From a virus (taxonomy: Duplodnaviria > Caudoviricetes), in the IMG/VR virus record IMGVR_UViG_3300021426_000073, positions 32,001 to 96,000 of that record: DNA of 64,000 nt. One strand, written 5' to 3'. Below, piece by piece: positions 3,977-46,500 of the stretch (positions are counted from its first letter, which is position 1; each line of letters opens with the position of its first letter). Below the pieces are notes generated by a model that saw only the letters and a list, made by a program, of their open reading frames with translations, had not been told where the DNA came from and did no database searches. A program made the translations under genes and the position numbers.

Positions 3977-6337
3977 ATGTACGCTACTGATTTTATATTT
4001 GATGGAGAAAGTCTATCTAGTAAGGGATATATGATTTGCGTATTTGATGGTGATTCTATAGTATCAGGTGGTGAGATAGAACCTATTGTAAAGAAAGCTC
4101 CTAATGCAGACGAGTATACTTATTATACTGCTCAAATAAACAATGTCCTTACTTGGCAGATAGACATCTGTAAGAGACCTTTATGCGAAGGTGATACTGC
4201 TAGTTCTTTTGAACCATTAACTCAATATGAAGAATCAGAACTTGCTCAATTCTTGTTAAAGACAGACGGATATAGGTGGCTACAATTTGTGCAACCAGAC
4301 GATTATCCTGATGTATTTTATAAAGTTTATATCAATATGACACCATACCAAATAGGCGGTCAAACATATGGATATAATTTAACAATAACATCTAACTGTG
4401 GTTATGGCTTTTCTCATGAGTATACTGCTACTCTTACTGATGATAATCAACCTTTAACAATTAATATAAATAATGATTTAAACAGATACATCTACCCTAC
4501 CGTTTCATTTGAAACAAATGCAGATGAATGTTGGATATATAATGAAAATGATTTAGAACAAAACTTAGATACTGGAAAAGAAAGCCATTTTTATAATCTA
4601 GGAGATAATGTAGATGTTCTTAAAGAAATATCTATGGATAGTACTAACGATGTTATTAACGGAATAGAAACTCCAGATCAATTTAATTGGAATTTTTTAA
4701 GATTGGTAAATGGTGAAAATAACATTTATGCAGATGGCATTCTTGCAGATGTTCACTACTCTACTACAGAATGGGAAACTGTAAGAGATGGAGCTACATT
4801 AACTAAAAATGGAAGTCGTACATTCGAATTAGAGCATCTACATAATGCTGGTGGAATTGTTGCTCGTACTGCTTTTGACTATGAATTACGTTATGACACT
4901 TTGCTAAGGTTTGGCTCTGCAAGTGCTGGTGAAACTATTGAATTAGATAATAATGTTACTTATGATTGGATTAAAGCTAAACTGAAAAAGCTTATCTTTA
5001 ATTTAGAACAAGAATATAACTATGTATACTTATATGCTGTAAATCCTTACCAAATTGAATTATATGGTTCAGCAGCTAGACTTGTATACAATGAAAATGA
5101 AGAACTTGTTCAAAACAATCAAGGTTTCGGATGGTTTGATTGCTATACTGTAAATATAGATTATATTACTGGTGAAATTAGCAATGTAACAAAAACATAT
5201 GGAATCAAGGCTGACAGAACTCATGTTGAAAACTTTTTATATGTTCCTACTCCTATTGTTCCGAAGGATGGTGGTGCTGGAATTACAATACCTTATAAAA
5301 CAGATTACATTCCTGAAATAATTAATGCAAGACGTACTGCTCCACTTTTCGAATTAAATGGATTGCCTGATGATTATAAAAGCGAATATGACTTTCGTAA
5401 CCTTACTGTCGGTGAAGGTAAGGGTGTTGTTGTTTTAAGAACTGATACTGATGAATATGAAATATGGGAATCAGATAAAGCTATTTTTGGTTATTATTTC
5501 TCTGGTGATTATATAGTATTGAGAGCAATAGATTATTCAGAATTAAAAATATATTCATACGATAAAACTGCCAAAATATGGAGTTTGACGCATAGAAGCA
5601 CTGGGGAGCATTTATCCCACGAACAACAAATGGGAATTAATGGCTTCTTGGGCGATACGGTATATATTTCTGAAAATGTAGTAATCTCATTTTTAAATGT
5701 AACACCTACAACTTCTTTTAATTTTGAAAATAAATGGGAAATCTATACAGGTGGAGAATTTATATCTGGTGGAAATGATGAAATAATTCAAAATTATAAG
5801 ACTCAGACTGGAGTCGAACCATTACAAATTTCAACAAGTTCAGAATTACCTGTTGTATCGTATAATTCATATACAAAATATTATTTTGACGAAGATAATC
5901 CTTTGCGTAATATTAATGTTAATAATGCTTTTATATATAATCCAAATGAATTTACCGTATCTATTGGTGCAAACATCTCTCTTGTTAGTCATACAGGCAC
6001 ATATCAAACGCAACACACACTTAATATGCCACTCTCTTTTAGAGAAAACGGTTATATAAATGTATACGAGCTTGGAAGAAATAAACGTGAAATACCAGCA
6101 AATACGAATGTATGTTTCCCACTAGAGAATGCTATTCTTGAAACTGACAATATTTCGATAATGTATGATTTTTTTGAAGAAGCAATATATAATATTGATA
6201 GAATAATAGACCATACTTGTGAAATTACTGGGGCTACACAAAATATGGTAGCAATAGAATATGAAAAATATTTGCCGGTAGAATCGCAACAAAATGCAAC
6301 TATTAAATATAGAGAAATAAGGAGAGTGTTAGTATGA
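3977..6337 (+). CDS. Distal tail protein (Dit) with a large internal insertion, probably carbohydrate-binding
   Basis: N-terminus MYATDFIFDGESLS...FLRLVNGENNI is Dit-like. The closing strand (ATIKYREIRRV) appears only after about 500 aa of aromatic beta-rich insert. Position after TMP fits. Confidence 0.7.
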   Translation: MYATDFIFDGESLSSKGYMICVFDGDSIVSGGEIEPIVKKAPNADEYTYYTAQINNVLTWQIDICKRPLCEGDTASSFEPLTQYEESELAQFLLKTDGYRWLQFVQPDDYPDVFYKVYINMTPYQIGGQTYGYNLTITSNCGYGFSHEYTATLTDDNQPLTININNDLNRYIYPTVSFETNADECWIYNENDLEQNLDTGKESHFYNLGDNVDVLKEISMDSTNDVINGIETPDQFNWNFLRLVNGENNIYADGILADVHYSTTEWETVRDGATLTKNGSRTFELEHLHNAGGIVARTAFDYELRYDTLLRFGSASAGETIELDNNVTYDWIKAKLKKLIFNLEQEYNYVYLYAVNPYQIELYGSAARLVYNENEELVQNNQGFGWFDCYTVNIDYITGEISNVTKTYGIKADRTHVENFLYVPTPIVPKDGGAGITIPYKTDYIPEIINARRTAPLFELNGLPDDYKSEYDFRNLTVGEGKGVVVLRTDTDEYEIWESDKAIFGYYFSGDYIVLRAIDYSELKIYSYDKTAKIWSLTHRSTGEHLSHEQQMGINGFLGDTVYISENVVISFLNVTPTTSFNFENKWEIYTGGEFISGGNDEIIQNYKTQTGVEPLQISTSSELPVVSYNSYTKYYFDEDNPLRNINVNNAFIYNPNEFTVSIGANISLVSHTGTYQTQHTLNMPLSFRENGYINVYELGRNKREIPANTNVCFPLENAILETDNISIMYDFFEEAIYNIDRIIDHTCEITGATQNMVAIEYEKYLPVESQQNATIKYREIRRVLV

Positions 6338-31364: not shown

Positions 31365-32780
31365 TTATATTTTTTTTAATTCATCATCATAAGACATTTT
31401 ATAAAAGCCTATATCTTTAATAGTATTCTGCGATTGATTAAACTCTAATATAATCTGATTATCAGCATCGCCAAAACGATTTTTTAAAAAGAATACTATA
31501 ATATACTTACTACTATCATTTAATGTAATAAGTTTCTTTTGTCCGTTTTCTACTATAAAAGGTTTTATATACTTCTTCTCATTATCGGTTAAATGTCTAA
31601 AGGCTATACCTACAGCTGCACATTCACATATAGCCTTTGATTTTCCTACGCTAGTCTGATCCAAAAACTTGTTATGTAAAGAGTCCGTAGCTAATTGTGC
31701 TGATGCAATTATAGCAACGTTTTCTTTTTTTGCTATACAATATAATTCTTTGGCATTATCAGCTAATTCTGCCCACGCTTTGTCGCTAGAATCTTTAACT
31801 GGTTTTAATACATCATAAAAGAAATATTTGCAACCTTGCTTTGACATTTTTCTGATTACCTTTTTAACATTAACTATATCATAGTTATCCATAGCCTTAA
31901 ATCTGATACGCCCTTTTTGAGCACCTATCCATGCAATAGCTTCTTCTACTTTTTGCATTTGTTCATCATTATAAGAACCTTTCATTATTTTAGCACGAGT
32001 CAAGCCTGTATCATCTATAATCTTGCTAAACAATACAGTTGATATAATCATATTTCTCCATTGCTTTGAGTTTTGCTCATTACATATAATAGTTATTGTC
32101 TCTCCATCTTCTATTGCTGGAAGAATAAACAATGGTACAGATGATGAACTCTTGCCCTTTCCACCGCCAGCAATCACCAACATAAGTTCTCCTCTGTGAA
32201 CGCCTGATGTAGTATAGTCAATAAATTGGCTACCCATTCTAAAACCAATATTCTTTTTATTGATAACTTCTTTAAGCCACTCATTATAACCTTCAGAGTC
32301 TGACAAGTCTTCTATTTCTGATTTTTGAATACTAGTTAGGTTTATGTCTGATAACTTATACTCATAGTAATCGTACACTTCTTCGCAAGACATATTAGCA
32401 AACTCTTTTAAGTTTTCTAAAACATTGAATCCTTCCGAATGCAATTTGATTAAGAAGTTAGATTTAATTAATTCATCGTAATACGCTTCTATATTATCTA
32501 TATTAACAGACTGTTTCAACTCACCAAACTGTTTGTATTGCTTCTTTATTGATGGTTTAGAATCTAGGTAGTTCTTTACGGATACTTCATCTGCTGATTC
32601 ATACCCTAATTTATACATATTAGAAATAATGCCGTAATAAATTTTTCCAGAATCTGTTATTATATCTGTACCATTTATTATGTTTTTATAATCATCACAT
32701 AAACTTATATCCTTGTATAACGATGCTATAAAGTTTAATTCTATTGTTTCTCTGTTTTCTAATAATTCATTTGGAATCAT
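31365..32780 (-). CDS. DnaB-like replicative helicase (SPbeta-type)
   Basis: Walker A AGGGKGKSS, ICNEQ, FFYD, ASAQL, KNRFG motifs. Confidence 0.85.
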   Translation of the reverse strand: MIPNELLENRETIELNFIASLYKDISLCDDYKNIINGTDIITDSGKIYYGIISNMYKLGYESADEVSVKNYLDSKPSIKKQYKQFGELKQSVNIDNIEAYYDELIKSNFLIKLHSEGFNVLENLKEFANMSCEEVYDYYEYKLSDINLTSIQKSEIEDLSDSEGYNEWLKEVINKKNIGFRMGSQFIDYTTSGVHRGELMLVIAGGGKGKSSSSVPLFILPAIEDGETITIICNEQNSKQWRNMIISTVLFSKIIDDTGLTRAKIMKGSYNDEQMQKVEEAIAWIGAQKGRIRFKAMDNYDIVNVKKVIRKMSKQGCKYFFYDVLKPVKDSSDKAWAELADNAKELYCIAKKENVAIIASAQLATDSLHNKFLDQTSVGKSKAICECAAVGIAFRHLTDNEKKYIKPFIVENGQKKLITLNDSSKYIIVFFLKNRFGDADNQIILEFNQSQNTIKDIGFYKMSYDDELKKI

Positions 32781-38988: not shown

Positions 38989-39697
38989 TTAACTCTTTAG
39001 CTTCAGTATTATCATCAGTTACAATGGCGTTGTTTTCAAGTACCTTTATTAACTTATCAATATCTTGTTGCTTATCAATATCGCAAGTGTAATCATTGAT
39101 AGCATGATATGAATAATAATCAATATGATTTAATGGATAATTTGTAATTACTTGCCATAATTCCCACGCTATCGGATGTCTTTTGAACTTGCCCTGTTCC
39201 TTATATAACTTGGTTTGCTCTATAGCCTTTTTAAATTTTTCTGTATCATTAACTTTAAAAGCAAAAGGTTCTGCCCAAGGTTTAATATAATCTTCTGAAA
39301 ATGGTGGGGCAGATGCAAAAAACTGTATATCATATACTTCAGTTTCAACAATAGTTTTGATTGCGTTTTCTGAAAAGTATACATCTCCAAAGAGATAGCA
39401 CACTGGTTCTTCTGTTAGCATAAACGCATCTACATAATACCCAGTTATTTTATTTTCTGGCGTAACAGTAAATTCATTTTTACGATGAATAACTTCACAA
39501 GGAAGATAATCAAAGTAATCATATGTGGCTGGATCTAAACTAGTAGTTACTGCTATGTCAGTAGCTCCATATTTTTTTAATAATCTAATAGTTCTTTCAA
39601 CTAAAACTTCATCATTTATTTTTGATAATTGTCTAGGCTTATCCCATCTAGTATAATTACCGCCACACATAATTAAATATTTACAATTCAATTTCAT
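38933..39697 (-). CDS. Nucleotidyltransferase-like protein (LicC/IspD/MobA fold)
   Basis: LIMCGGNYTRWDKPRQL...ERTIRLL, YLFGDVYF, CDIDKQQD motifs. Confidence 0.65.
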   Translation of the reverse strand: MKLNCKYLIMCGGNYTRWDKPRQLSKINDEVLVERTIRLLKKYGATDIAVTTSLDPATYDYFDYLPCEVIHRKNEFTVTPENKITGYYVDAFMLTEEPVCYLFGDVYFSENAIKTIVETEVYDIQFFASAPPFSEDYIKPWAEPFAFKVNDTEKFKKAIEQTKLYKEQGKFKRHPIAWELWQVITNYPLNHIDYYSYHAINDYTCDIDKQQDIDKLIKVLENNAIVTDDNTEAKELIDSCAELQDKIQRGETND

Positions 39698-40370
39698 TCA
39701 CCTCTCTTAATATATTTGATAAAGTGCAATTCTGTTTTAACACTTCTTCTCTGCTTAAAGATTTGTAATTAACAGGTGTCCAAGAATTATGAAGAACAAA
39801 CATATCCACATCGTTAACATCTTCTAAAATGTAATTACGATTGAAATAAAAATCGATATAATTGCTTCGACTTGTTCCACCTTCAATCATTGTTAATTCT
39901 GGTCTGCATTTTTCGATAGGATATATCTTAACCTCTTTGTGGCTAGGTACATATGTATCAGTAAACATATTAACTAACACGGACCAGTGTTTTGAATGAT
40001 TAGGATTAGCAATAGTTTTGTCCTGATATTTAGCCCATTCGATAAAGAAGTCTTTAGCTTCTTCTGTATAATGAGATACACCAGTCGAATGAGTTCTCTT
40101 TGTAACGTCACCAATTACGTTTTCTTCAATTAATTTACCAGTTGCTATAATAGTATCAGCATCCAACCAATAACCGCCGTGATCACGTAATACGTGTGCT
40201 CTAACAGCATCCGACACTTGTGGTAAAGTGAATGTCTTCACTCCTTTAATATCTATGTCTGTATACTGTAATAAGTTACTATAATTTAAAATAGTGAAAT
40301 CAAACTTCCAAGTATCTAGGCATAGTTTAATATAGTCAGGCATCTTGCCTTCCCAAAAAGTAAAAATCAT
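39681..40370 (-). CDS. Capsular polysaccharide synthesis / GT32-like DXD glycosyltransferase
   Basis: TFWEGKMPDYIKLCLDTW and SDAVR..L..HGGYWLDAD motifs. Confidence 0.75.
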   Translation of the reverse strand: MIFTFWEGKMPDYIKLCLDTWKFDFTILNYSNLLQYTDIDIKGVKTFTLPQVSDAVRAHVLRDHGGYWLDADTIIATGKLIEENVIGDVTKRTHSTGVSHYTEEAKDFFIEWAKYQDKTIANPNHSKHWSVLVNMFTDTYVPSHKEVKIYPIEKCRPELTMIEGGTSRSNYIDFYFNRNYILEDVNDVDMFVLHNSWTPVNYKSLSREEVLKQNCTLSNILREVNEIEL

Positions 40371-40423
40371 ACTATTCTCCTTTTTTTATATAGTCTATCG
40401 TGTTTAAATGTACTTAAATGTAG

Positions 40424-41665
40424 TTAAACTACATTATTAAGCCAATATATTTTATTATATTTCCAAAGTAACTTACATTTTTTAGCATTAACCTTTTTAC
40501 AATGCTTTGTAGGACTTTGGAAATTCAAAGCATTTAGTTCGGGATATAGGGCTGTAACATAGCCTCTATGCGTTTCTCCATTTTTGAATGTGTATTCCAC
40601 TAAATCTCTATGCTTGATACCTAAAACATTATCTGTATTTGCTTTGCTTTGCCTACGCATAGGTTTAATAATCCACTCTTTAATATCCGTAGTATCAGGT
40701 TTTAAGTTTGTAATACAGACAGCGTCGTTTGAATGTGATTTATCTATATCCCAATCAATACGCTTATTTGCGGTATCGCCACCATTAGTTAAATACAAAG
40801 TACCAAGTTCAGATAATTGTTTTCTTAACCAAGTTTTACCTATCATTACGTGTTGTGCATAATTAAGTTTTTTTGTATCATAAGTAAAAAGCATATCGAA
40901 ATAATGTTGCATATACTGTTCTTCTTTACCTTCTGTCTTTTGATGGCATTTGCTACATAAAGTAATCATATTATCAAAAGTGTTAGAACCATTTAATCTT
41001 CGTGGTTTAATATGATGTACTTCAAGTTTAGTATTAGTTTTACCACATTCCATACACTTATAATTATCTCTAAAGATTACCGCTTTACGTATGTTTTCAT
41101 CTAATCTATTAGATTTTTGATACTTCCACCTATAAGGTTTGTATCCATCAGTTAATGCTCTTATATCTATCGCAACATCTTCAAGCCAATAAGAATTAAT
41201 ATTGATCCATTTATTAAGTTGGTTGACAACTCTTAATGTTGCTTGACGTTTTTGTAATATACTAGGAGCGATACGTTCTTTTCTTTTTAAAGATTTACGA
41301 TTATTAAATCTAGCTTCACGATACCTTTTATGGTATCTATGGTATCTTCTATAACCTCTACGTAATTCCATTAAATGCTTTACATCATTTCTTTGTTCTA
41401 TTGTTCCTTTGAACAATGTTTTGTTTTTAGTCTTGCATTTCTGCACTATTGCAATACCTACGTGTAAACCACCATCATCTATACCACATCGTATTTCATC
41501 TTTGCATATTTCATCATCAGGTATAGTGCGTTTAAGTTGTATCACCATAGGATACTTACTAACTAATTTAGCCTTACCTTTTCGAATCATATACCATGCC
41601 TTTGTTTCTTTTGTTGGTGATAATGGTTTTCCATCAGCATCCAATACAAATGCATAATTTGTCAT
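40424..41665 (-). CDS. iscB: IscB RNA-guided endonuclease
   Basis: PLMP-like GKPLSPT, RuvC-I GIDDG, Arg-rich bridge helix, RuvC-II LEDV, HNH (VHHIKPR...N...CH), RuvC-III SHSNDA; catalytic residues appear intact. Confidence 0.92.
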
Positions 41666-41981
41666 TTCTGACCACCTTCCTTTCGGAGTATTTTTCTTCT
41701 TGCCAATGTCGGATAGAGGATATGTGTTTCTCTGTTATCATCGCAGGGCATTAGCGATGTTTCTTGATTGGCACTCACAGAGCTTCAGACTGAAGATTAC
41801 ATCTAAAGGTGTGTATTTACCTTACTATCTAACGTAGTTCATATCTGCAACATACCTTTCGGCAGTAGCAGTCACTTAGGCTTGAAACCTACTGTTAAGT
41901 CCATATCTCAAAAGACTTATTGTGCCCACTTTCGAGTATGCTTAATCACATATTTCTATGTTTTTGGTCACTTAACAGTTA
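41666..41981 (-). ncRNA. IscB omegaRNA (HEARO-like) scaffold
   Basis: Non-coding structured 315 nt directly 5' of iscB; 5' stem ACTGTTAAGT/ACTTAACAGT; motifs CAAGCCTAAGT, AACTACGTT, AGCTCTG, GACATTGGCAAG typical of this RNA. Confidence 0.8.
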
Positions 41982-42159
41982 GTCCCATCATATAAACTTT
42001 TATAATATCTTCAATGGGCTTAATTGTCCCATCGTATAAACTTTTATAATATCTGTATTTAGGTAATTGCAGCAATTTACTTCTAATAGAGCAATCTTGA
42101 ATAACAGTTCTGTCCACAAAGTATTCTTGCAACAACTTTCTACAAGGACATTCAATCAT
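41968..42159 (-). CDS. 63-aa hypothetical protein overlapping the omegaRNA guide region
   Basis: GGAG RBS downstream of a promoter; 3' end contains a 29-bp duplication. Confidence 0.45.
   Translation of the reverse strand: MIECPCRKLLQEYFVDRTVIQDCSIRSKLLQLPKYRYYKSLYDGTIKPIEDIIKVYMMGLTVK
41982..42054. repeat. 29-bp direct repeat (1 mismatch) at the IscB guide position
   Basis: GTCCCATCATATAAACTTTTATAATATCT (41982-42010) versus GTCCCATCGTATAAACTTTTATAATATCT (42026-42054). Confidence 0.95.
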
Positions 42160-42258
42160 ATTTTTTCTCCAAATGAATTTTGTCTAGTTTGTTTGTAAAA
42201 AAGAATCACTCTGTATAGAGCAATTTAGATTATGAATTTCGTCTAGTTAACTATAATA

Positions 42259-42286
42259 ATTATACCATATCTGGTAAGAATGTAAA
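42259..42286 (-). promoter_or_regulatory. Sigma-A-like promoter upstream of ORF63/omegaRNA/iscB
   Basis: Minus TTTACA-16 bp-TATAAT with a TG extended -10. Confidence 0.65.
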
Positions 42287-42400
42287 TAGCAAATAAGCAA
42301 GTTCGTGAATTGCTCATGATTAAAATCATAAGCTTCCTAGTCAATATTCCTAACGGAACAAGTTTACCTAGGCTATCTCTGTGATTCCCACAGTTGTCAT
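42285..42400 (-). ncRNA. TnpB reRNA/omegaRNA with flank-derived guide (GAACTTGCTTATTTGCTATT...)
   Basis: Scaffold overlaps the tnpB 3' end; the guide begins right after the TCAC right end. Confidence 0.75.
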
Positions 42401-43533
42401 CCTCAAACCTTCGTTGAGAATATTTATTGCAGCATTTATATCTCTTTCATGATGTATACCACAAATAGGGCAAGTCCATTCTCTAATAGATAAAGTTTTC
42501 TTACCGTCTTTATATCCACAACTAGAACATATTTGACTCGAAGGATACCATGTATCAATTTTTATAATTTCACGACCATACCATTCAGCCTTATATTCTA
42601 ATTGTCTTACAAATTCACTCCAAGATACATCTGCTATTGCTTTTGCTAAATTATGATTTCGCATCATATTTTTAACCTTAAGACTTTCTAGTACTATAAC
42701 TTGATTTTCGTTAATTAGTTTTTTAGAAAGTTTGTGTAAAAAATCTTTTCTTTGGTTAGTTATCTTTTCATACTGCCTTGCAACTTTTATTCTACATTTT
42801 TCTCTGTTTTTACTATCTTTCTTACATCGAGATAAATCCTTTTGCAGTTTCCTCAATTTTTTCTCTGCTTTTAGAAAATACTTTGGATTATTTATTAACT
42901 CTCCGTTAGAAGTAATAGCAAATTCTTTTATACCAAGATCTATTCCTATTTTGTTTTTATTTGCAGATAATTTATGTTGTTCCATAGTATCTACTAAAAC
43001 AGAAACAAAATACTTTCCAGATGGATTTTGAGAAATTGTAACCGATTTTATTACTCCGTTAAAATCTCTATGCTTCTTTACTTTAACTAATCCAATTTTA
43101 GGTAACTTGATATACTTGTTGGTTATTCTTATATTATCTTTTTGGTTATTTGTAGTATAAGAATTATAATGATTCTTCTTACTTTTAAATTTAGGATGAC
43201 CAACTTCAGGTCTTTTAAAGAAGTTATTGTAAGCAGTTTGCAAATTTAGTTGAGCATTTGCTAACGCTAGCGAATCAACTTCCTTAAGCCAAGTAAATTC
43301 TTTTTTATATTGAGCAGGAGTATTGTTAAGCTTTTGTTTTGTTTGTTTATAATATTCAATTTTGTCTGCAAGCATTTTATTGTATATAAAACGAACGCAC
43401 CCAAAGCATTTGGAAAAATATATCTGCTGTTCCTTGTTTGGATACAATCTATATTTATAAGCTTTAAGCATAAACAACTCCTTTCTGTAAACGTTCATTA
43501 ACTCATGACTAAAGTCACAAGTATGCTTTCACA
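42305..43533 (-). mobile_element. IS200/IS605-family, TnpB-only (IS1341-like) element
   Basis: Inserted 3' of TTGAT (43534-43538, overlapping the TGA stop of 43535..43747). Left-end hairpin ACTTGTGACTTTAGTCATGAGT; right-end hairpin GCTTATGATTTTAATCATGAGC ending in TCAC; no tnpA. Confidence 0.85.
42368..43471 (-). CDS. tnpB: TnpB RNA-guided endonuclease
   Basis: [10 protein letters not shown]-terminus, RuvC GIDLG, VLESL, zinc finger [19 protein letters not shown]; AAGGAG RBS before ATG 43471. Confidence 0.92.
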
Positions 43534-46500
43534 ATCAATTAATTCTTTTATCGTCATATACAAACTCCCAACTTCTTATTGCATCACCACATATATCAGC
43601 AAGTGTATCTAAACATTCAATAGCGTAATCAAATGGTTCTGCATTAAATCCATCAATATTATATTGATGTGCTATTTTCTCAAGTAATCTTCTTTGCTTT
43701 ATCAGTTTTTGTTTATTGCTAACTAATTCATCATATACTACTCTCATATTTTATGCTCCTCTTCTAACAACCACTCACGCATATCCTTTTGACAAGTAGT
43801 TGAATTAAATCTACACTTGCTGCAAGGATATGTCTGCATGGCTTTTGCTCTTAATATTTCATAATCGTCAGTAATACAATAGCTTTGCACTATCATATCG
43901 ACAAAGTGTTCTTGATTAATTTGTACTATCTTCTCTAAGTTCGTCATGTTCTAACTCCGAAATACGATTGTAAATATCTTGATATGCAATTATTGCACCT
44001 TTATTCATATCTTCGTTCGCTAATCCGATATCTGATACTTCTCTTGCAAATAAAACTTTGCTTAAACTTTCTTTGATATCTTCTACAATTGCAATATACT
44101 TAACTTGTTCATTAAGAGTATCTTTAAGATTCTTATGGCTATAAGTATCTACAACAGTTTCAAGTTGTTCTTTCGTTAAGCCTACTTCTTTAATAATCTG
44201 TTCCAACGTCATCGATATCACACTCCTTAATTTTCCTTTATTTAATGTGAATGATAGCTTTCGCATTCTTTTTGATATTCTTCGTATTCTTCTAGTTTCT
44301 TTAATTTTTTTAGCACTTGAGCATCAGGTTCTATGCTATTAACTACATTTATAAGCATTTGTTTTATTATTGGAGCATTTTCAATCCATTCAATGTTGTC
44401 AAGACAATCAAGGCTTTTAATAACCTCTTGTCTGCTGATATAATCCGTAAATATTTTCATATTAATTCTCCTTATTCATTGCTTTGCTCATACTATTGTA
44501 ATACCATTTTAATTCTTTAAATTCCTTATCTGACAATCCAACAACCTCTATACATTGAAGTTCTGTATTGTAAACAATTCTTAAATAATCATCGGCAGCA
44601 ACGGCTTCAATATTTCCTACCTTTTCTTTGTGTGTATCAATATCAATAGCACATAATAATTCACTTTCACTAGGACTACAAGTTGAATGGTTATAAATAC
44701 CATAAGGTGCTCTGTATATATTTTCTTTTACTATACGTTTTGCTATTTCTAATTTATCTTTCATTTAATTATCTCCTTTATATGGTTCTGGTAATGGAAA
44801 CCAAGCAAGTGGCTCATATTCACAATCGTCTAAAACAAATTCATCCGTTTGCCAATGAGTGCCATTCCACCAAGCAATATGCGGTTGATTGTTAGAAAAT
44901 AAATATACGAGTACTTCTTTATTAACTTCAGGTAATCTGTCTTTTACAGAAACCCAAGAGTATTTTTCTTTATATTTTTTCTTTATATTTTTTCTTTTTC
45001 TTAGGCATTGGTGGTACGTTTTTTGTAATGGTATATTTGTTTCAACAATTGGAGGGATTCCTTTTCCACTCTTTATATCTTCCCACAATCTTTTTTCTTC
45101 TAGCGTCGAGTAAATTGGTCTATAGGCTCCTTTTATCATAATAATTCTCCTTTTCTTTTGTATTATCCACCTGATACACTTATCTTTTTGCCATCTTTTA
45201 ACTTATATGTATTGAAAACCCATTTCGGATCAGTACAACGTGTTTCTTCAATGATGTCCTCTACGGCTAAATAAACTTGATAAGGCAAAAAGCAATAAGC
45301 ATTGCTAACCATTCTCTCGTTAAACATTAATATAGACTGTTCATCATCAAGCCACATCGAATTAGATAAATCCGTTAACTCTGTATATGGATTTCCCATA
45401 AAGTCTTTTTCTTTATTTACAACCTGTTGATGCCGTTCATTTATTAATCTTCTTGTAATCTTATCAATAACTTCAAACATCCCCATTACATCATCAATTT
45501 CGCCCTCGTAACATCCGTCTTCATCTATTTCAATACCTTTAGATGTTATAAATTCTTCCCACTCTTGGTAGTATTCATTATTCCCGAATACTTGTTTGTT
45601 GTTTACGTATGTTCTATACGACATCTTGTTCTCCTTTGTTTAAAAATATATTTTGTCACACTCTTTTACGTAGAAAGACTTGCTAGCATTGCTTAAGTAT
45701 CTATCTGCAAACCACTCTACGTCAGACATTGGGCACAATGAGAATTTTGAAAATTCTTCAGCCACTTTTTTCTCCGCCTCTTCTTTAGTCAAAAATCTTT
45801 CACGGTCTGTATAAGTATATGGTTCTTGGTCACTACTATAACAATGGTCATTAAAGTATCTCCAATAAGCAATATAATGTTTTAATGCTATCATAACTAT
45901 TTTTCTCCCATCTCCGCTCCACAGTTAGGGCAGAACTTAAAACCGCTCAATCCCATGTGTGCATTGCAGACACTACATACTTTAGCCCCACCTATATTAC
46001 TTTTCATCCAATGTCCTTTTTTAAGTGGTTTTAACTGAATAGCTCTAGTAAAGCCTAATTTATCGGTTACGACCATTACTTTGTCATTTACAGACATACC
46101 ATTACAAAGAATCGGTTCATCTATTCTAAAATCAGATAACATTTCATCATCAATAATTGCTATATATTTCATCTATATCACCTCTTATTATTAATTTTTT
46201 AACTTTAATATATTTACTATAACTACTTGATCTAAATCAGTTTGTTGTATGATTGAATCAATTAGTATATTGTAATTTTCTGATTTTAAAAAATCCAAAC
46301 CAGTCTCTATTATGATACTTCCCCATCCTTGTTTACCTGTATTTTCTGTGAAATGATAACTAATCATGTACTTATTAACTCTTTTCTTAAACATTATTAA
46401 TTCTCCTCATAATTGTCTCGGATACCTTTAACGCATTCGTAACAGTTGCTTCCATCGGTTTCGGATTTATAAACACAAGTATCACACTTATTACTATTAG

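Follow-up and report, generated by a model that had tools for sequence, protein, structure and literature searches.

A 29-nucleotide duplication at the right end of a phage IscB element and a guide possibly directed at sister phages

The locus lies in a window of 64,000 nucleotides, the whole stretch of DNA that was analysed, which covers positions 32,001 to 96,000 of IMG/VR record IMGVR_UViG_3300021426_000073. All genes of the locus are on the minus strand and follow each other in the order tnpB, a 63-amino acid ORF, the omegaRNA, iscB, and a glycosyltransferase gene at 39681-40370 (Table 1). The product of the intact iscB gene matches the Pfam families RRXRR (2.8e-48) and HNH (4.7e-13) and aligns over residues 4-411 with HfmIscB, for which a structure has been solved (PDB code 9k2z; E 2e-194). 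The GIDDG and EVHHIK motifs are both present. The protein thus has the N-terminal PLMP/RRXRR region, the split RuvC, and the inserted HNH domain that characterize IscB.

The omegaRNA is located directly upstream of iscB on the same strand. With 41.9 bits (E 1.4e-6), its match to the HEARO family (RF02033; 41688-41925, minus strand) falls short of the gathering score, which is 83. Stem P1 is a perfect 10-bp inverted repeat (41970-41979 and 41891-41900), and the scaffold is conserved at 73-87% across more than 40 related loci; the mini elements L001 and L002, which lack IscB, have an omegaRNA that is 86-87% identical to it. A search of the 112-kb genome for a Y1 (HUH) TnpA gave no match to PF01797, with control genomes positive. 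The element is therefore non-autonomous, as are most iscB elements (Meers et al., bioRxiv 10.1101/2023.03.14.532601), and its spread would rely on homing or on a host transposase.

In the IscB-less miniatures (2886-3375 in L001 as well as in L002), the right end, the omegaRNA, and the left end are kept, and iscB is cut to ∼45 codons. Shorter fusions of right end and left end, 40-90 nt in length, occur in other phages (L005, L014, L043, and L061 are the miniature derivatives listed). All of these derivatives may be orphan guide RNAs, possibly acting in trans, or deletion remnants.

Table 1. Features of the locus, with positions in the window
Feature	Position	Strand	Description
TnpB element	42305..43540	-	tnpB at 42368-43498; right end at 42305; left (high-coordinate) limit putative
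Promoter-like site TTTACA-16-TGgTATAAT	42259..42286	-	upstream of the small ORF; 11/12 matches, with TG; conserved in relatives
Small ORF P0001	41968..42159	-	63 aa; contains both repeat copies
Upstream repeat copy (site X)	42026..42054	-	native codons R-Y-Y-K-S-L-Y-D-G-T of the small gene
Guide match in upstream copy	42030-42045	-	16 nt, one mismatch at 42034
TAM position of upstream copy	42026-42029	-	reads GGAC
Spacer AATTAAGCCCATTGA	42011..42025	-	15 nt, native codons I-K-P-I-E
Flank part of downstream copy	41986..42010	-	25 nt replacing the native 16 nt AGAAATTWTYAAAAAA
Predicted guide AAAAGUUUAUAUGAUG	42001..41986	-	16 nt, within the downstream copy
GGAC, first 4 nt of the IscB element right end (transposon-encoded motif)	41982..41985	-	from family alignment and empty/filled pairs
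IscB element, non-autonomous, IS200/IS605-type	40381..41985	-	1,605 bp; right end and omegaRNA at the high-coordinate side
OmegaRNA (HEARO) scaffold	41688..41985	-	from RF02033 and relatives
iscB	40424..41665	-	413 aa, intact
Left end with subterminal hairpin AATGTAG-TTTAA-CTACATT	∼40381-40440	-	from family alignment
GGAG adjoining the left end	40377..40380	-	putative TAM; Shine-Dalgarno of the glycosyltransferase gene
Glycosyltransferase ATG	40370..40368	-	after GGAG 40377-40380

A repeat search showed that the 29 nucleotides at 41982-42010 (GTCCCATCATATAAACTTTTATAATATCT) recur at 42026-42054 (GTCCCATCGTATAAACTTTTATAATATCT). The two copies agree at 28 of 29 positions and start 44 nt apart, just as the original prediction from the window had it. 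The single mismatch is an A at 41990 of the plus strand versus a G at 42034. Direct repeats that are 29 nt or longer, have no more than one mismatch, and are spaced by 30-100 nt occur just twice in the whole 112,063-bp genome, so the duplication is not a product of chance. The second such repeat (30 nt, spacing 59; AACTAATAGTATATGATAACATATATAATA) is found at genome position ∼4562, which is 27,438 nt ahead of the window start. Moreover, five contigs, which come from separate samples (L107, L108, L109, L110, and L141), carry exactly the duplicated sequence, with no difference across 1,820 nt in three of them, and its recurrence in independent assemblies rules out an assembly artefact. As 44 is not a multiple of 3, the two copies are read in different frames of the 63-amino acid ORF.

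The same prediction was right in stating that the repeat adjoins the omegaRNA, as seen from the HEARO match and the P1 stem, and that the downstream copy, which flanks the right end of the IscB element, is the guide template. Its register was 4 nt off; the GGAC at 41982-41985 is the right end of the element, and the guide ends in ...GATG. Without the GGAC that the upstream copy happens to share, the repeat would measure 28 nt and not 29. Similarly, the AATTAAG that had been placed after the upstream copy has to be replaced by GGAC(AATT) at the TAM position.

To define the family, IMG/VR was searched with a pattern of 16 nt that represents the omegaRNA 5' end, yielding ∼45 loci that represent 18 independent insertion sites. 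The flank is different at each of these sites, whereas the right end starts with GGAC at all 18. The only variant, GAAC, is a point mutant of an already known site, and it was all that a search with the pattern lacking GGAC recovered. Two pairs of empty and filled sites locate the ends of the element: ...GAACAAAA/GGAGAATATT in L122-124 compared with filled L119, and ...TAAACAA/GGAGAATAAT in L132/134/137 compared with filled L067. In both pairs, the element sits exactly between the flank and GGAG, scarless and with no target-site duplication. The 4 nt following the left end read GGAG in 17 of 19 insertions, the exceptions being L004 (GGAC) and the mini element L014 (GGGT). The following gene has this GGAG as its Shine-Dalgarno, and the upstream flank usually terminates with a stop codon and A residues. 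Judged by these alignments, the IscB family inserts scarlessly and immediately 5' of GGAG, always beginning with GGAC.

From this placement exactly before GGAG (both pairs and 17 of 19 insertions), we infer that GGAG is the TAM and that GGAC, one base different, is a self-protecting end motif. GGAC would have to be non-permissive because each family element keeps a perfect guide match beside GGAC in its own DNA. In described IscB elements, the right end likewise delimits the omegaRNA, the TAM adjoins the left end, and a difference between end motif and TAM protects the guide locus from being cut (Meers et al., bioRxiv 10.1101/2023.03.14.532601). An alternative left-end model with GACTA as TAM' at ∼40388 is ruled out by the empty/filled pairs, which put the boundary at ...AAAAAAA/GGAG.

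The insertion in L004 (∼4620-4660) is the sole full-length family member with GGAC after the left end, and 7 of 7 contigs of this site are filled. GGAC is therefore perhaps not strictly non-permissive for integration, or the site was mutated after insertion; in the latter case, the L004 element may have been fixed by the mutation of its TAM. Empty sites for the L004, L055, and L084 insertions were looked for and none was found.

Insertions of this gut-phage family are in sense orientation and fall between a stop codon and the ribosome-binding site of the next gene (L010/L119 versus L122-124; L067 versus L132/134/137; window 40377-40380). The Shine-Dalgarno stays attached to the downstream gene, and the guide corresponds to the last 16 nt of the upstream ORF. 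A Shine-Dalgarno GGAG serving as TAM would explain this precise, sense-oriented placement between genes.

The duplication is not a property of the family. When the 20-nt flank plus GGAC was scanned at up to five mismatches, none of the 17 other independent insertions had a duplicated guide, so the search for similar duplications that had been proposed for other iscB loci returned nothing. Being unique among 18 independent insertions, the duplication reflects neither a family-wide design nor a family-wide RNA switch.

Both copies lie within the small ORF, which falls into a 90% cluster; most of the remaining members have 57 amino acids and end in ...KYRYYKSLYDG[R/T]IKPIEEIIKKGE. The native end is ...IEEIIKKGE at residue 57, and the ORF of the carrier ends in ...IEDIIKVYMMGLTVK. 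It keeps 54 of the 57 native residues, continues into a new tail (VYMMGLTVK), and terminates at a UGA in stem P1 of the omegaRNA. In the element-free relatives (related phages of ∼50-110 kb), the glycosyltransferase gene comes straight after the small gene, and the locus is without both IscB and the TnpB element. The sequence of the upstream copy is found in frame in the 57-amino acid orthologues of the element-free L111-L118, L140, and L142. On the DNA level, the relatives align with a single copy and then AGAAATTWTYAAAAAA GGAGAATAG TATG, and the native DNA reads ...AGATATTATAAAAGTTTATA[T/C]GATG GGA[G/C]AAT[A/T]AAACCYATTGA ahead of these segments. At the place of the spacer, they have AATAAAACCYATTGA or AATTAAACCTATTGA.

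Upstream copy and spacer together are thus native codons (RYYKSLYDGTIKPIE) that are present in relatives without IscB, and the alignments establish the upstream copy as native coding sequence near the 3' end of a conserved small phage gene. Most differences between the orthologues are synonymous, indicating that the small gene is real. Relatives of the small ORF were found neither in IMG/VR nor in GenBank phages, and the distant glycosyltransferase-linked loci L087-L089 have no small-gene homologue.

A read-through transcript from the promoter-like site at 42259-42286 would carry both copies and the omegaRNA. A further candidate promoter, which would have been created by the duplication itself (TTGAAG-16-TATGAT, 42014-41987), is improbable. 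It matches at 9 of 12 positions only, promoter-like sites are no commoner than in shuffled sequence, and a transcript from it would begin at the scaffold, without the guide. Translation of the small gene may compete with folding of the omegaRNA; the UGA of the ORF (41968-41970) is in the 5' strand of P1, and translating ribosomes must cross the guide and open this stem. A 17-nt motif (AACTAGAC[G/A]AAATTCAT) occurs twice (42232-42248 and 42173-42189, minus strand, 59 nt apart) in the small-gene 5' UTR, a short distance after the strong promoter at 42259-42286. This motif is conserved in relatives and may be an operator of a phage regulatory circuit.

The right end of the neighbouring TnpB element was placed by aligning 10 related TnpB loci. 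Its guide template (GAACTTGCTTATTTGC...) occupies ∼42304-42285 and runs into the -35 region of the small-gene promoter. L111 and L112 are without the TnpB element and have the intact empty site ...TTTTTTAA/GAACTTGC. A link of the 29-nt repeat to the TnpB element is ruled out: the right end stops at 42305, and the guide at 42304 to ∼42285 is unrelated. The other local repeat, AACTAGACRAAATTCAT, which is present twice, is native 5'-UTR sequence and also occurs in relatives. In the element-free L113-L116, a 44-nt insert is situated between the two AACTAGACRAAATTCAT motifs in the small-gene 5' UTR (corresponding to window ∼42190-42200). The insert resembles the reRNA 3' end, or right end, of TnpB (..GATTTTAATCATGAGTAGTTCA..) and looks like a solo TnpB end remnant.

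The segment between the two repeat copies contains CCCATTG, and the original prediction had it pair with either copy and named an RNA switch as one of several options. In such a switch or processing signal, a CGAUGGG/CCCAUUG hairpin would mask one of the copies or define where the omegaRNA begins, for instance by blocking host RNases or by serving as their substrate. Pairing with the upstream CGATGGG is indeed stable (-9.3 kcal/mol, z -5.65), the hairpin is kept in the centroid of a 396-nt fold, and two SNPs of the carrier turn G:U pairs into G:C pairs. Pairing with the downstream guide copy, however, is weak (-6.9 kcal/mol; 13 of 200 shuffles fold equally well). The arms of the hairpin are native codons with the same pairing potential in all element-free relatives (tested with L142). 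The alleles are found in all four combinations, and the changes, being transitions at third codon positions that preserve pairing by default, do not amount to true covariation. Other family members have no such hairpin. Because the native arms pair in the relatives and real covariation is missing, an evolved RNA switch is unlikely, and we give this reading hardly any weight.

A target census covered the sister phages and the carrier genome. In 9 of 10 element-free contigs (L112-L118, L140, and L142), a 16/16 match to the guide is followed by GGAGAATA, the same 8 nt that follow the left end of this IscB element. A 15/16 match followed by GGACAATT is found in all five element-bearing contigs and in the element-free L111. 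The mismatch in site X of the carrier is at guide position 5 from the TAM and would result in an rU:dG wobble. Elsewhere in the 112-kb genome, no site matches the guide with fewer than two mismatches. At the empty insertion point (...AAATTWTYAAAAAA/GGAG), none of the relatives observed matches the guide, which leaves site X as the only available target in known relatives. The exact empty allele of the carrier's insertion was not found among the relatives, which have 16 different nucleotides at the junction.

The original prediction had also proposed a built-in self-target for autoregulation. The IscB-omegaRNA complex would bind the upstream copy without cutting and thereby block transcription that starts at the promoter at 42259-42286 and runs through the small gene, the omegaRNA, and iscB. 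A potential self-target the upstream copy is, with its 15/16 match and a lone mismatch that amounts to a U:G wobble, and its place on the transcribed unit is after the promoter and before the omegaRNA. In Cas9-like enzymes, including IscB, recognition of the TAM precedes R-loop formation. The TAM position of the upstream copy, however, reads GGAC, the very motif that must prevent recognition of the guide locus in every family member, and the feature is absent at the 17 other insertions. With GGAG as the TAM of the family and GGAC at the upstream copy, this copy looks disarmed rather than like a working autoregulatory target, and autoregulation appears improbable.

The closest empty relative, L142, does not differ from the carrier over ∼270 nt to the left of site X, counted from the TnpB end, and on the right side of the element the nearest SNP is found at +168. 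In between, five SNPs (T>C, G>C, A>T, A>G, and T>C) are crowded into a 20-nt stretch that begins at guide position 5 and includes the TAM. Four of them are synonymous and one is R>T; two of the synonymous SNPs are beyond the TAM. The element-bearing contigs form one near-identical lineage, so the association of element and immune allele effectively has n=1. These phages are fine-scale mosaics in this region, and the existence of the L111 allele without the element, the two SNPs beyond the TAM, and this mosaicism mean that the patch could be an ordinary recombination tract.

Two candidate routes to the second copy start from the native gene end, which contains two imperfect repeats, AGATATTATAAAAG...GGAGAATA and AGAAATTWTYAAAAAAGGAGAATA, that share AGAWATTATHAAAA and GGAGAATA. 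By one possible route, the second native repeat was converted by the first, giving an in-frame allele (ending in ...IEDIIKVYMMGE and the stop) with GGAG, into which the element then inserted in the ordinary way. Insertion at the GGAG of this allele would give exactly the sequence of the window. In that case, the upstream copy would have exposed the phage to lethal self-targeting before the GGAC allele took its place. By another possible route, the element was first inside site X of a phage with the T/GGAG-type allele and was moved by 44 bp through misaligned recombination at the microhomologies. The T of the guide copy and the C of the upstream copy are the two natural alleles, which is compatible with either route.

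The expected intermediates were sought in 15 billion proteins and in the JGI metagenomes. Neither the 60-amino acid "N2" allele, with both copies and no element, nor an element inside site X was present in them, and the JGI metagenomes contained no element-free two-copy junction (...TATATGATG/GGAGAATAGTATG). The earlier suggestion of a scar of guide acquisition or break repair is kept as a live option for the origin of the duplication, with its precursors not found.

Such an origin could also be a neutral accident, in which gene conversion or a template switch copied the first native repeat over the second, IscB later inserted at the GGAG, and the patch of SNPs is mosaicism, with nothing selected. 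The guide would then be present twice simply because its flank was already a duplicate. Native microhomologies do flank the replaced 16 nt on both sides, and the hypothetical pre-insertion allele is in frame (+9 nt) and keeps the stop codon, the Shine-Dalgarno, and the TAG-T-ATG junction. The family inserts at any GGAG of the Shine-Dalgarno type, and a one-time accident fits with the singularity of the duplication among the 18 insertions, the mosaic nature of the region, and the GGAC allele that exists without the element in L111. However, an upstream copy flanked by GGAG would be cut by an active IscB that has this guide and resides in the same genome, and some selection on this copy is thus hard to avoid. 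The five SNPs in 20 nt fall exactly on seed and TAM within ∼440 nt that are otherwise identical to L142, and the two-copy element-free allele is missing from the 15 billion proteins and the JGI metagenomes. We consider a purely neutral history the main rival, less likely than not but deserving of more weight than either of the regulatory readings above.

On balance, we favor the view that the two copies are a protospacer and its guide template, and that the IscB is directed at sister phages in a manner known from intronless homing. The downstream copy flanks the right end of the 1,605-bp element and would therefore be transcribed as the guide of the omegaRNA. The IscB would cut nearly all element-free sister phages at site X (16/16 match plus GGAGAATA), 44 bp from the position of the element, and site X of the carrier would be spared by GGAC and the rU:dG mismatch at guide position 5. 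Repair of the cut with the carrier genome as template would transfer the element along with the immune patch and the second copy. In such RNA-guided homing, self and non-self would be told apart by substitutions and not by an element that interrupts the target. Placement of the element after the gene and not inside it would preserve 54 of the 57 codons.

In a more general and more tentative form, the phage-borne IscB may act as an RNA-guided free-standing homing or exclusion nuclease. The target of its guide would be a conserved gene that sister phages carry, 44 bp away from where the element is inserted, and self-immunity would be provided by a one-base change of the TAM (GGAG to GGAC) and a wobble in the seed. 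With the Shine-Dalgarno as TAM, the family would fit between phage genes and cause no polar damage.

IscB and TnpB are generally accepted to re-cut the site that their transposon leaves empty on excision; in this role, the element destroys the target by being present. The guide described here matches none of the observed empty insertion sites, but it has an intact, TAM-flanked site in most sister phages. Should the predicted cleavage pattern hold true, this would be a natural OMEGA nuclease with substitution-based discrimination of self and non-self, the logic followed by the T4 Seg and Mob endonucleases and by phage-phage competition. The two alleles, which differ by a few bases, would also offer a simple experimental system for the stringency of TAM and seed in a compact IscB that is close to a solved structure.

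The layout of the element (right end, omegaRNA, iscB, left end, and no TnpA) is that of the IscB elements of Meers et al. It also shares with them the scarless insertion beside a short TAM motif, an end motif that differs from the TAM, and a guide that is read from the flank. The element has the orientation of the upstream gene, so the guide would be made by read-through, as in known IscB elements. IscB elements of this kind, with the omegaRNA at the right end and "cut-and-copy" homing, are the subject of Meers et al. and reportedly also of Altae-Tran et al. (2021). The phage IscB has the same RuvC and HNH motifs as HfmIscB. In canonical IscB elements, the guide matches only the empty site, and self-protection is achieved by interruption. 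Here, in contrast, an intact site is present 44 bp away in the own genome as well as in sister phages, the guide is unmatched at the empty insertion site of any observed relative, and the putative TAM is a Shine-Dalgarno GGAG.

Self-targeting CRISPR spacers are tolerated through PAM or seed mutations in the protospacer. The locus resembles them in a near-perfect match to the own genome that is predicted to be disabled at the adjacent motif and in the seed. Unlike them, it has no array and no acquisition machinery, and the "spacer" is DNA flanking a transposon.

A parallel in logic exists with the free-standing homing endonucleases SegF, SegG, and Mob of T4. There, too, the nuclease gene lies next to its target instead of interrupting it, a small number of substitutions in the target distinguish the carrier from sensitive relatives, and co-conversion of flanking markers together with the nuclease gene is expected. 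Intronless homing and localized marker exclusion by such phage endonucleases have been reviewed (PMC13565253), and in the terms of this review the system would, by our analysis, somewhat more probably than otherwise count as non-restorative homing with substitution-based discrimination. SegF, SegG, and Mob differ in that their DNA recognition is by protein, whereas an RNA guide and a TAM are predicted here, with the nuclease residing in a transposon-type element.
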